This document shows positions 8,348 through 9,064 of a DNA stretch of 11,694 nt, piece by piece (the first letter of the stretch is position 1; each line of letters starts with the position of its first letter). A program made the translations under genes and the position numbers. The stretch covers positions 1 to 11,694 of the IMG/VR virus record IMGVR_UViG_2671180437_000003. The stretch is one strand, 5' to 3'. The stretch comes from a virus (taxonomy: Duplodnaviria > Heunggongvirae > Uroviricota > Caudoviricetes). The notes below the pieces were generated by a model. That model did no database searches. It was not told where the DNA came from and was given only the letters and a program-made list of their open reading frames with translations.

Positions 8348-9064
8348 ATGTCTGCTTTGTATGAACGTTCACAGCTGACGCAGGTGATGATTTCATCTGC
8401 CCCGGCGACTGCTGAAACCATGGAGAAGGCGGAATATCTGCGTCTGGACTGCACCATCAAGGAGGTCCAGTTCACCGCCGGTCAGAAACAGGATATTGAT
8501 GTGACCACGCTCTGCTCCACAGAGCAGGAGAACATCAACGGTCTGGGGGCGTCGTCTGAGATTTCCATGTCGGGTAATTTTTATCTGAATCAGGCCCAGA
8601 ACGCCCTGCGTGATGCCTATGACAATGACACGGTGTATGCGTTTAAGGTGCAGTTTCCGTCCGGTAAGGGCTTTAAGTTCCTGGCGGAAGTGCGTCAGCA
8701 CACCTGGTCATCCGGTACCAACGGCGTGGTGGCAGCAACGTTTTCACTGCGTATGAAAGGCAAACCGGTGTCCTTTGTGGTACCGCTGGCGTTTGTGAAA
8801 AATCTGGATAAAACACTTACCGTGAATACAGGTGCGCTGCTGACAATGTCAGTCAGTGCCAACGGGGGAACGCCGCCGTATAAATACGCCTGGAAGAAGG
8901 ATGGTCAGCCGGTTGACGGGCAGACGACAGACACCTTCAGTAAGCCAGGTGCGCAGTCCGCTGATGCGGGGAAATATACCTGCGTGGTGACCGATTCGGC
9001 AGAGAAAGCACAGAGTGTGACGTCTGTTGAATGCACCGTGACAGTGAGCGCAGCCGCCGGATAA
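8348..9064 (+). CDS. Major tail (tube) protein with C-terminal Ig-like domain
   Basis: The track ORF 8219..9064 is trimmed to the in-frame ATG at 8348, which follows the hairpin and AGGAGG (8338-8343). The C-terminal ~85 aa (YKYAWKKDGQPVDG...GKYTCVVTD) show an immunoglobulin-like motif pattern, as in lambda gpV-type tail tube proteins. Confidence 0.7.
   Translation: MSALYERSQLTQVMISSAPATAETMEKAEYLRLDCTIKEVQFTAGQKQDIDVTTLCSTEQENINGLGASSEISMSGNFYLNQAQNALRDAYDNDTVYAFKVQFPSGKGFKFLAEVRQHTWSSGTNGVVAATFSLRMKGKPVSFVVPLAFVKNLDKTLTVNTGALLTMSVSANGGTPPYKYAWKKDGQPVDGQTTDTFSKPGAQSADAGKYTCVVTDSAEKAQSVTSVECTVTVSAAAG

Follow-up and report, generated by a model that had tools for sequence, protein, structure and literature searches.

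We analyzed a window of 11,694 nucleotides (i.e., the whole stretch of tailed-phage DNA) and found that the major tail (tail tube) protein encoded at 8348..9064 on the + strand ends in a single domain of the immunoglobulin (Ig) superfamily (I-set/Ig_3 type), fused in frame to the C terminus of the tail-tube protein via a linker of approximately seven residues. We regard this structural identity as virtually certain. The protein is an orthologue of HK97 gp12 and BP-4795 ORF64, its Ig domain is a module that is present on some tube domains and absent from others, and this module is under purifying selection as judged from dN/dS values. Our overall explanation, which we consider probable, is that the gene encodes the Ig-decorated tube of a long-tailed lambdoid (HK97/BP-4795-like) Stx-type Escherichia coli phage, with the Ig domain acting as an accessory adhesin.

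The major tail gene and its tube domain

The open reading frame (ORF) extends in translation from the ATG at 8348 to the TAA at 9062-9064 (238 aa plus stop), and an AGGAGG ribosome-binding site (8338-8343, + strand) lies 5' of the ATG. We identify the product as the major tail protein because it matches PHROG 158 ("major tail protein"; E = 4e-117), its N-terminal domain scores above the Pfam cut-off for Phage_tail_2 (25.6 bits; cut-off, 23.8), and its gene occupies the place expected of it, with the tail terminator gene before it and the G/T chaperone genes after it. The gene shares 97 to 99% nucleotide identity with the "major tail subunit" of Stx-converting phages and is present in 1,245 of 5,426 complete E. 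coli genomes, which together contain about 2,900 copies. Homologues of its product already bear the RefSeq name "immunoglobulin domain-containing protein." The opposite strand holds only a 55-aa ORF (8695-8862, - strand) without support, which we rejected as a gene.

The major tail gene follows the tail terminator/completion gene (7945-8289, from the annotation of neighbors) and precedes the G/T chaperones and the tape measure. A GC-rich hairpin followed by a T-run (8309..8327, + strand) lies between the tail terminator and major tail genes, outside the domain under study. Downstream, the tail assembly chaperone pair (9079..9758, + strand) consists of a G-like ORF (9079-9453) and a T-like frame (to 9758), with Pfam matches to Phage_TAC_1 (E = 1e-61) and Phage_tail_T (E = 5e-19), and the two frames are joined by a -1 slippery site (A AAA AAG; 9443-9449). 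This site, the sole one seen nearby, is the chaperone genes' own. A GTG AAA AAT run near the domain boundary (8795-8803) does not follow the canonical heptamer pattern (X XXY YYZ), and we saw no evidence of its use. An Ig domain appended by frameshifting in the manner of SPP1 is ruled out by the one uninterrupted ORF at 8348-9064; with the tube and Ig domains read in a single frame, an Ig domain is expected on all subunits.

The tail-tube domain (aa 1 to 140; 8348..8767, + strand), delimited on the basis of Pfam, alignment, and Foldseek results, terminates in the invariant motif LRxKGK(P). The alignment of 34 homologues contains 50 invariant columns in this domain, and its matches to the lambda-like families Phage_TTP_11/12 fall slightly under the Pfam cut-off. 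The best whole-chain Foldseek matches are structures of lambda gpV (i.e., 7t4f, 8iyk, and 8iyd; E = 2.3e-9 for 7t4f_A). In the full-length AlphaFold model, aa 45 to 62 form a floppy loop of the tube domain (pLDDT, <50). The tube/Ig junction is a linker of seven residues (aa 141 to 147, VSFVVPL; 8768..8788, + strand) that is gapped and variable in the family alignment, and it is here that orthologues lacking the Ig domain diverge: at one such Ig-less locus (L001), the DNA identity to the window ends directly after the GKP codons.

Fold and family of the C-terminal domain

An Ig-like domain at the C terminus of the major tail protein had been predicted from the letters alone, and Pfam, PDB sequences, AlphaFold2 (AF2), and Foldseek all confirm it. 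Predicted strands extend from aa 148 to aa 234, which places this I-set/Ig_3-type beta-sandwich at 8789..9049 (+ strand), followed by the four-residue tail AAAG. The extent originally proposed (8800-9061) was right within a few codons, but position 8800 lies in codon 151, so that strand A was clipped, and the start given as aa 155 was approximately seven residues late. The quoted motifs are all present (YKYAW at aa 178 to 182, DAGKYTC at aa 206 to 212, and ECTVTV at aa 228 to 233).

With the C-terminal 93 aa alone as the query and the curated gathering cut-offs as thresholds, four Pfam Ig models were matched: Ig_3 (39.2 bits; cut-off, 30; E = 1e-9), I-set (36.4 bits; cut-off, 23.7; spanning aa 149 to 227), Ig_2 (34.2 bits; cut-off, 27), and ig (26.0 bits; cut-off, 21.8). 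The original prediction had named I-set and Big_2 as the families to search for; the former is above its cut-off, whereas no Big_2 match was obtained for the C-terminal domain, even at E <= 1. In phmmer searches of PDB sequences, the domain matched the four-Ig decoration protein of Bas63 (9ncf; E = 2.9e-38) and the Ig domain of T5 pb10 (5lxk; E = 2.3e-17), with further matches to 8zvi and 9c2d.

Structure prediction, the other check proposed at the outset, returned an Ig fold, contrary to the outcome that would have refuted the prediction. The domain-only AF2 model (mean pLDDT, 93.9; pTM, 0.83) contains nine strand segments of at least three residues, and the full-length model has pLDDT values of 88 to 97 across aa 141 to 238. 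The top 50 Foldseek matches of the domain model in the PDB were all Ig domains, on which it superposes at 1.5 to 1.8 Å (e.g., 9d7z_K, TMq of 0.85 and 1.5 Å; 3bfo_A, TMt of 0.87 and 1.7 Å); Dscam, titin (I-set, 2rik), and the T5 pb10 C-terminal domain (CTD) were among the other matches. That the alternating pattern and the Y-x-C signature are a chance resemblance and no real domain exists is therefore a reading to which we assign practically no probability: it is ruled out by four Pfam models above curated cut-offs, E values down to 1e-38 against solved phage Ig domains, and a confidently modeled fold that fits known Ig domains.

The signature residues occupy their expected places. The core tryptophan of strand C, Trp182 (codon 8891..8893, + strand; within YKYAWKKDG), is nearly invariant in the family alignment and lies in the predicted strand 179-184. 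The D-x-G-x-Y-x-C hallmark (D206-A-G-K-Y-T-C212; codons 8963..8983, + strand) marks the start of strand F, reaches into the predicted strand 208-215, and lines up with its counterparts in the Ig domains of Bas63, Sf14-type proteins, and pb10; G208 within it is nearly invariant in the family. The two cysteines (C212 in strand F and C229 in strand G) are not universally conserved, and the canonical Ig B-F disulfide is ruled out by a strand B without Cys. Most of the residues conserved in the family (W182, G208, Y178, the GG-x-x-PY loop, and D216) belong to the fold core or to turns and thus reveal no conserved binding pocket.

Presence, absence, and variation of the Ig domain

Natural orthologues of 147 aa lack the Ig domain and have tube domains that are 94 to 100% identical to Ig-bearing ones. 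The Ig-less P0120 and the Ig-bearing P0023 have the same tube domain (100% identity), the tube domain of the Ig-less P0098 is 94% identical to that of HK97 gp12, and the match to Enterobacter phage LAU1, an isolated phage, is limited to aa 1 to 140. Because of these orthologues, the Ig domain is dispensable for tube building, and any benefit of the domain is conditional. The 147-aa homologues are not truncated or frameshifted pseudogenes; in the syntenic Ig-less module L001, the chaperone gene begins 9 nt past the major tail stop, a gap without room for an Ig-coding segment. Frameshift-disrupted copies of the Ig domain do occur in some lineages (P0096, P0100, and P0119). The large majority of the listed homologues, which come from Escherichia, Klebsiella, Pectobacterium, Dickeya, Enterobacter, Citrobacter, and Erwinia, have an undamaged domain.

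The dN/dS values of the Ig part were 0.21 (window versus BP-4795) and 0.13 (BP-4795 versus HK97); codon comparison thus indicates purifying selection on an Ig part that is still functional. The mean identity among homologues was 50% for the Ig part and 74% for the tube domain; the Ig part evolves faster than the tube domain.

The variation is concentrated in a divergent allelic patch (approximately 8905..9100, + strand), delimited by comparison with BP-4795 and by diversity, that takes in the 3' half of the Ig-coding segment, starting at aa ~187, and continues through the intergenic spacer into the opening codons of the chaperone gene. The window and BP-4795 are 98 to 100% identical from 7000 to 11694, except at 8920-9099 (60 to 72%). 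Among 10 modules, nucleotide diversity is higher in the patch (0.14 to 0.18) than anywhere else in the 11.7 kb, and only two discrete alleles occur, A (window) and B (BP-4795), each almost invariant internally and both shuffled among Stx1a, Stx2a, and Stx2c phages. The window and BP-4795 proteins differ at 21 aa, 20 of which are at or after aa 143, compared with a single difference in the 140 residues of the tube domain; 15 of the 21 fall at aa 200 to 237, mostly in loops and the C-terminal tail according to DSSP strings. No complete E. coli genome matches the tube-domain DNA of the window at more than 98.6% identity, whereas many match the Ig segment at 100%.

The same allele (99.2% nucleotide identity) was found in prophages of O121, O157:H7, O145:H28, and O26:H11 strains. 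A serotype-specific allele is thus unsupported, and its occurrence in four serotypes speaks against a domain adapted to recognize one particular O-antigen. A diversity-generating retroelement was also considered and rejected, given that we found no template repeat (i.e., a second copy of the variable segment) within the window and no reverse transcriptase among its annotated genes, and that the variation takes the form of two discrete alleles, not of scattered site-wise variation.

We also considered the idea, quite doubtful in our estimate, that the Ig module is more than a fixed decoration, namely a swappable two-state (or present/absent) cassette whose distal half recombines, along with the spacer and the start of the chaperone gene, among otherwise near-clonal Stx-phage tail modules, and that the A, B, and Ig-less states differ in the glycans bound or in recognition. 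If true, the cassette would tune the gut retention of Stx phages and their efficiency of reaching new E. coli hosts, and a determinant of the spread of Shiga toxin genes would be located outside the tail tip.

Display, function, and comparison with known systems

If the tail resembles those solved for lambda, T5, and YSD1, its hexameric tube rings would be built from the N-terminal domain, and the Ig domain would hang flexibly outside, with six Ig domains per ring. The lambda tape measure of 853 aa corresponds to 32 rings. Scaled against lambda, the tape measure of the near-identical phage BP-4795 (1,080 aa) would correspond to approximately 40 rings and approximately 240 domains per virion. 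Surface-exposed behavior of the Ig domain is suggested by its lower identity among homologues than that of the tube domain, by the diversity peak of the module, and by more than 1,000 phage records in which this domain type occurs on capsid decoration, whisker, and Hoc-like proteins. Exterior display and an accessory role have been described for the tail Ig-like domains of other phages (PMC8718954 and PMC9022992), and the original prediction was right in treating the decoration of siphophage tail tubes by such domains as known (PMC8718954 and PMC9022992).

In our explanation, the Ig domain would be an accessory, non-essential adhesin that binds surface glycans (polysaccharides of the bacterial envelope, gut mucin, or both) weakly and at many points at once, and such adhesion would keep the virion near the surface, raising the odds of the tail tip finding its receptor. 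We put the chances of an adhesion role, which is a hypothesis of the field, at about even. To our knowledge, no I-set domain on a tail tube has a known ligand, and we found no literature specific to the Stx-phage tail Ig domain or its mucus binding. The carbohydrate-binding hypothesis for such domains "remains to be experimentally verified" (PMC8718954).

An unlikely alternative to adhesion is a structural role, in which the Ig domains mainly stabilize or assemble the long tube through neighbor contacts or an outer lattice. The purifying selection on the domain would be compatible with this role, and in lambda the Big_2 domain makes a small within-ring contact, a surface network has been proposed, and removal of the domain lowers activity 100-fold, with tails still formed (PMC8718954). 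However, the 147-aa orthologues manage without the domain despite their 94 to 100% identical tube domains, the equivalent SPP1 domain is not needed for infection, and the T5 and YSD1 domains protrude loosely with no tube contact (PMC8718954 and PMC9022992). Moreover, if the surface formed a lattice, a 21-residue allelic swap beside a tube domain that differs at 1 of 140 positions would be unexpected.

It is also improbable that the domain is a promiscuous mobile module, spread by recombination among phage structural genes and now a selectively neutral passenger on the tail. Neutrality is hard to reconcile with dN/dS values (0.13 to 0.21) well under 1, with a domain kept whole by the large majority of the listed homologues, which span seven genera, and with conserved fold-core residues. 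In favor of a passenger, domains of this type occur on many carrier proteins unrelated to one another, identical tube domains are found both with and without the domain, and frameshifts disrupt it in the three lineages noted above. Very improbable, in our view, is the reading in which the domain matters as an exposed antigen or host-factor target (e.g., of an antibody or an anti-phage sensor), with the two alleles kept by selection for evasion. The 3' half of the Ig domain is indeed the most diverse spot of the module, with its alleles shuffled among Stx1a, Stx2a, and Stx2c phages and their differences lying mostly in loops and the C-terminal tail. Nevertheless, the average dN/dS between the alleles (0.21) gives no sign of positive selection at such resolution, and two alleles in 10 modules, almost invariant internally, better fit old recombining alleles than ongoing diversification. 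We know of no host factor that recognizes this major tail protein. For the accessory-adhesin explanation, the presence and absence of the domain on identical tubes, the purifying selection, and the variable outer half together constitute a natural experiment, and the phages concerned also transfer Shiga toxin genes among E. coli in the gut.

[quoted passage not shown] The comparison with known systems also extends beyond phages. Eukaryotic I-set/C2-set Ig domains (i.e., MALT1 Ig, Dscam, titin, sidekick, and contactin) share the fold, the strand-C Trp, and the strand-F D-x-G-x-Y-x-C motif with the window domain (MALT1 3bfo_A superposes at 1.7 Å, with a TMt of 0.87), but their identity to it is approximately 20%, and the window domain has no strand-B Cys and hence no B-F disulfide. 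The closest relatives of the Ig domain itself are the T5 pb10 CTD (5lxk; 46% identity), the Bas63 and Sf14-type hexamer decoration proteins (9ncf and 9c2d), and T4 Hoc, the last being a weak match (E = 0.02); T5-like decoration/whisker proteins are 57% identical over aa 144 to 217. The motifs GG-x-x-PY-x-Y-x-W-K-K-D/G-G and DAG-x-Y-x-C are common to the window domain and the pb10, Bas63, and Sf14-type domains. The Ig domains of pb10, Bas63, Sf14-type proteins, and Hoc are solvent exposed and accessory, with glycan or mucus binding proposed; their carriers are capsid-hexamer or neck proteins, often with 2 to 4 tandem copies, whereas the window protein is a tail tube with one copy.

Among tail tubes, SPP1 gp17.1* likewise has a C-terminal Ig-fold decoration, of the FN3 type and dispensable for infection (PMC8718954 and PMC9022992). 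It is added by a +1 programmed frameshift at a decorated-to-undecorated ratio of approximately 1:3, in contrast to the window domain, which is I-set and in the same frame as the tube. Lambda gpV and T5 pb6 also combine two domains, one forming the tube and the other an Ig-like domain on the exterior that is accessory to tube formation and for which adhesion has been proposed; these Ig-like domains are Big_2 (PMC8718954 and PMC9022992). The lambda domain lies along the tube, and that of T5 sticks out from it. The original comparison with lambda gpV thus holds for the architecture but not for the Ig family, which is I-set/Ig_3 here, so that Big_2 is ruled out as the family and gpV serves as an analogue only. 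Although gpV is the best whole-chain structural match, its identity to the window protein is only 17%. PDB sequence and structure searches returned no solved HK97-type tail tube with such an Ig domain.

The nearest systems are HK97 and BP-4795. HK97 gp12 (NP_037706) is 68% identical to the window protein over 234 aa (E = 5e-122), and BP-4795 ORF64 (Q6H9U0/YP_001449301) is 93% identical by tblastn. A review that cites Fraser et al. 2006 places both in its I-set class of major tail proteins with Ig domains (PMC9022992, Table 3). They share with the window protein the tube domain of approximately 140 aa, the short linker, and one I-set-type Ig domain in 234 to 238 aa. The gene order is also the same (i.e., tail terminator, hairpin, major tail, G/T chaperones with a -1 frameshift, and tape measure); in HK97, a "putative terminator" is annotated at the place equivalent to the window hairpin, and the chaperone product is annotated as "translated due to a -1 frameshift." The finding therefore mostly confirms known phage biology, this protein family having been listed as Ig-bearing since 2006, and its value for annotation is the description [quoted passage not shown] The Ig-less 147-aa orthologues, the purifying selection yet faster evolution of the domain, and the two recombining alleles in its 3' half are additions to the known picture. 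The window protein shows no difference of kind from HK97 gp12 and BP-4795 ORF64, the window carrying Ig allele A and BP-4795 allele B.

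The C-terminal domain of the major tail protein

The major tail gene extends from ATG 8348 to TAA 9062-9064 and encodes a protein of 238 aa, with an AGGAGG motif (8338-8343) located 4 nt 5' of the start codon; the feature of the original prediction lies within the 3' third of this gene. A longer form from GTG 8219, which overlaps the upstream gene and appeared in a mechanical ORF list, is an ORF-calling artifact. This form is annotated in some records, such as those of BP-4795 (ORF64) and phage 1717, and the 238-aa form is annotated in RefSeq and other records. The extended version (281 aa; overlapping the tail terminator gene) is common among gene callers. 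Database "major tail" proteins of 294 to 374 aa (P0002, P0009, and P0034) are likewise spurious and arise where assemblies with frameshifts join the gene to the one upstream.

The carrier was correctly recognized as the major tail protein. Its first 140 aa are a tail tube domain, which matched Pfam Phage_tail_2 above the cutoff and the lambda-like TTP_11/12 families just below it; PHROG 158 ("major tail protein") matched the window protein with an E value of 4e-117, and lambda gpV chains ranked on top in a whole-chain structural search.

Three independent lines of evidence (i.e., profile HMMs, sequence matches to solved relatives, and structure prediction) identify the C-terminal segment as an Ig-like domain, confirming what had been observed from the sequence. 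In Pfam searches, the last 93 aa exceeded the cutoffs of Ig_3 (39.2 bits; cutoff, 30), I-set (36.4; 23.7), Ig_2 (34.2; 27), and ig (26.0; 21.8), and Big_2 gave no match to this segment even at an E value of ≤1. A sequence search of solved structures retrieved the hexamer decoration protein with four Ig repeats of Bas63 (9ncf_S; E value, 2.9e-38; identified as Bas63 in a published paper), a three-Ig "tail protein" (9c2d_S; 7.6e-28), and the decoration protein chains 8zvi_a (4e-19) and 5lxk_A (T5 pb10 C-terminal domain; 2e-17), with Ig proteins of eukaryotes (LRIG1, Robo1, Dscam, contactin, and titin) ranking next. The full-length AlphaFold2 model had pLDDT values of 88 to 97 across aa 141-238, and a domain-only model of the same residues reached a mean pLDDT of 93.9 and a pTM of 0.83. 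The best solved neighbors of the latter were Ig domains without exception, including the Shigella phage Moo19 decoration protein (9d7z_K; TMq, 0.85; 1.5 Å), the human MALT1 Ig C2 domain (3bfo_A; TMt, 0.87; 1.7 Å), the T5 pb10 C-terminal domain (46% identity), N4 capsid decoration, Dscam, titin I-set, and sidekick. Matches in a library of predicted viral structures were to Hoc, "outer capsid," "decorating," and tail proteins.

The predicted strands cover aa 148-234 (nt 8789-9049), so that the domain had been placed properly, with a start at 8800 that clips about three residues from the first strand. All of the sequence strings quoted in the original prediction were found (YKYAW, aa 178-182; DAGKYTC, aa 206-212; ECTVTV, aa 228-233), and the Ig hallmarks comprise the strand-C tryptophan (W182) and the strand-F D-x-G-x-Y-x-C motif at 206-212, which contains the Y-x-C signature noted earlier. 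The domain lacks the cysteine that classical Ig domains have in strand B and therefore has no canonical disulfide.

Presence, absence, and allelic exchange of the Ig module

Homologues of 147 aa stop shortly after an invariant KGKP, and one such cluster has 767 member sequences; P0099 and P0105 also belong to this Ig-less set. In a syntenic prophage (L001), 9 nt separate the 147-aa gene (4001-4444) from the chaperone gene, and DNA similarity to the window ends exactly after the GKP codons and returns in the chaperone gene. The tube domains of the Ig-less protein P0120 and the Ig-bearing protein P0023 are 100% identical, and those of the Ig-less P0098 and HK97 gp12 are 94% identical, while HK97 and the window share just 79%. 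In the isolated Enterobacter phage LAU1, only aa 1-140 were matched. The Ig domain is thus a detachable module, present or absent on the same tube scaffold; given this toggling, it would not be needed for building the tube.

Three diverged clusters of the Klebsiella/Enterobacter type (P0096, P0100, and P0119; 242 aa) share an out-of-frame tail that starts within the Ig domain, directly behind "YVWKK/R," and extends beyond the normal stop. By eye, this tail seems to be the +1 frame of a normal Ig sequence; the cause may be either sequencing errors or frameshifting that has recurred at an A-run. The window reads AAG AAG at this site, with no homopolymer.

Between the window and BP-4795, identity in 60-nt bins (7000-11694) was 98 to 100% everywhere except at 8740-9110, with a low point of 60 to 72% at 8920-9099. 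Within this one gene, synonymous divergence was 0.086 in the tube domain versus 0.564 in the Ig part. Nucleotide diversity among ten aligned modules was highest at 8911-9090 (0.14 to 0.18, the maximum of the 11.7 kb), flanked by the most conserved stretches (<0.02). The divergent patch (8905-9100) extends from the 3' half of the Ig-coding segment across the spacer into the first codons of the chaperone gene. Only two alleles occur there among the ten modules: allele A (the window, Stx1a_10051, YYZ-2008, and 2851) and allele B (BP-4795, EH2246, JNE121036, EH1910, 1717, and one O157:H7 prophage). They differ at 21 residues, 15 of which lie at aa 200-237 (E-F loop, one F-strand position, F-G loop, G strand, and C-terminal tail).

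Across the 1,250 matching records of complete E. coli genomes, the tube-domain DNA of the window (8348-8767) reached at most 98.6% identity, but its Ig segment (8768-9078) was 100% identical to many records, some of them from non-STEC human isolates, so that the nearest relatives of the gene differ between its two halves. The Ig segment showed at least 99% identity in 943 of these records and 80 to 90% in 198. These data mark the 3' half of the Ig-coding segment as a recombinational patch whose two alleles are shuffled among Stx1a, Stx2a, and Stx2c phages with flanks of 98 to 100% identity. A diversity-generating retroelement was considered and rejected, since the window holds no second copy of the variable segment and nothing suggests such an element.

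Among 30 full-length homologues, mean identity to the window protein was 74% for the tube domain and 50% for the Ig part. The dN/dS ratio (Nei-Gojobori) of the Ig part was 0.21 for the window versus BP-4795 and 0.13 for BP-4795 versus HK97, compared with 0.04 for the tube domain in both pairs. The Ig part is thus kept by purifying selection, yet evolves faster than the tube domain.

The surrounding head and tail module

A complete module for the head and proximal tail makes up the window; it encodes a small terminase (128-691), a large terminase (688-2349), a prohead protease-capsid fusion (2413-4350), a portal (4562-5926), a repeat-containing protein (5923-6822), a head-tail adaptor (6819-7145), a head closure protein (7155-7505), a gp10-like protein (7502-7948), a tail terminator/completion protein (7945-8289), the major tail protein (8348-9064), G/T-type chaperones (9079-9758), and a tape measure (from about 9812). 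Over its full length, it is 96 to 98% identical to long-tailed lambdoid phages converting for Stx1a, Stx2a, and Stx2c, and the major tail gene occurs in 1,245 of 5,426 complete E. coli genomes, with up to eight copies per genome.

In the 645-aa ORF at 2413-4350, a prohead serine protease (Peptidase_S78; aa 48-151) is fused to an HK97-fold major capsid protein (Phage_capsid; aa 386-635), and public labels of the ORF vary between "prohead protease" and "major capsid protein." The ORF at 5923-6822, 3' of the portal ORF and overlapping it (ATGA, 5923-5926), had no match in a Pfam search; it carries tandem repeats of 54 aa (162 nt) at 6088-6206 and 6250-6368. Its length is 299 aa in the window, 353 in Stx2_EH2246, 407 in phage 1717, and 461 in BP-4795 (i.e., 54-aa steps), so repeat copy number appears to differ between phages. 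In YYZ-2008 and 2851, it is joined to the portal as one ORF of about 860 aa, and RefSeq names the O157 copy "portal protein, frameshifted."

In the chaperone pair (ORFs 9079-9453 and 9477-9758), a slippery heptamer (A AAA AAG; 9443-9449) directly precedes the TAG of the chaperone gene, and a -1 shift there leads into the Phage_tail_T frame. This is the programmed frameshift of the lambda G/GT type; the HK97 counterpart is annotated as such. Terminator-like GC hairpins with T-runs lie just 5' of the major tail gene (8309-8327) and after the T-like ORF (9768-9789), inside the expected single late operon. Their only support is positional conservation, in that "putative terminator" features are annotated at the corresponding places of HK97; the number of such sites is no higher than in shuffles.

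Putative role and relation to known tail proteins

Beyond the fold, family, in-frame fusion, orthology, modularity, and purifying selection observed here, a working model can be drawn from the solved tails of lambda, T5, and YSD1, by analogy with which the tube domain would form hexameric rings with the Ig domain projecting outside. All subunits should be decorated, because the tube and Ig domains share one reading frame. The lambda tape measure has 853 aa and its tail has 32 rings; scaling by the 1,080-aa tape measure of BP-4795, which is near-identical to that of the window, each virion would have some 40 rings and some 240 Ig domains.

According to the standard hypothesis, such domains would bind surface carbohydrates weakly and multivalently, holding the virion near the cell or mucus layer. 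The hypothesis fits a domain that is exposed, accessory, and detachable, that evolves faster while still constrained, and that is related to Hoc- and pb10-type decoration domains. Caution is warranted because the review literature regards carbohydrate binding by tail tubes as an unverified hypothesis, the conserved residues of the domain family look structural, and one allele is shared by prophages of several O-serogroups. Stabilization of the tail by the Ig domain, as partly seen in lambda, ranks well below weak adhesion, as do the readings of the domain as a neutral passenger or as an antigenic or escape surface.

The Ig domain type is promiscuous among carriers. The Ig part alone matched more than 1,000 phage records (tblastn), and other carriers (tblastn and PHROG) include T5-like pb10/N5 decoration proteins, neck whiskers, Hoc-like proteins, Felix O1-like "tail" (hexamer decoration) proteins, and other major tail subunits. 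The allelic and presence/absence behavior of the module is a tidy addition to a known feature, and Stx phages thereby already provide a natural experiment with which the adhesin hypothesis can be tested.

The nearest named relatives are BP-4795 ORF64 (Stx1 phage; "putative major tail subunit"; 93% identity to the window protein) and HK97 gp12 (68% over the whole length), and RefSeq names the phage copies "immunoglobulin domain-containing protein." HK97 gp12, BP-4795 ORF64, and PY54 gp12 are grouped as "I-set" in a published table of major tail proteins with Ig domains; other classes in it carry Big_2 (lambda gpV and T5 pb6), Big_1 (Chi and YSD1), or FN3 (SPP1 gp17.1*) domains (PMC9022992, citing Fraser et al. 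2006 for the I-set class). The likeness to lambda gpV proposed in the original prediction therefore holds for the architecture but not for the Ig family (Big_2 in gpV, I-set class in the window), which makes gpV an architectural analogue and is the sole correction to an interpretation that was right in substance. In SPP1, the FN3 domain is dosed by frameshift, whereas all subunits are expected to be decorated here. The feature is thus an already known one, the I-set Ig domain of a tail tube protein of the HK97 gp12/BP-4795 ORF64 type.
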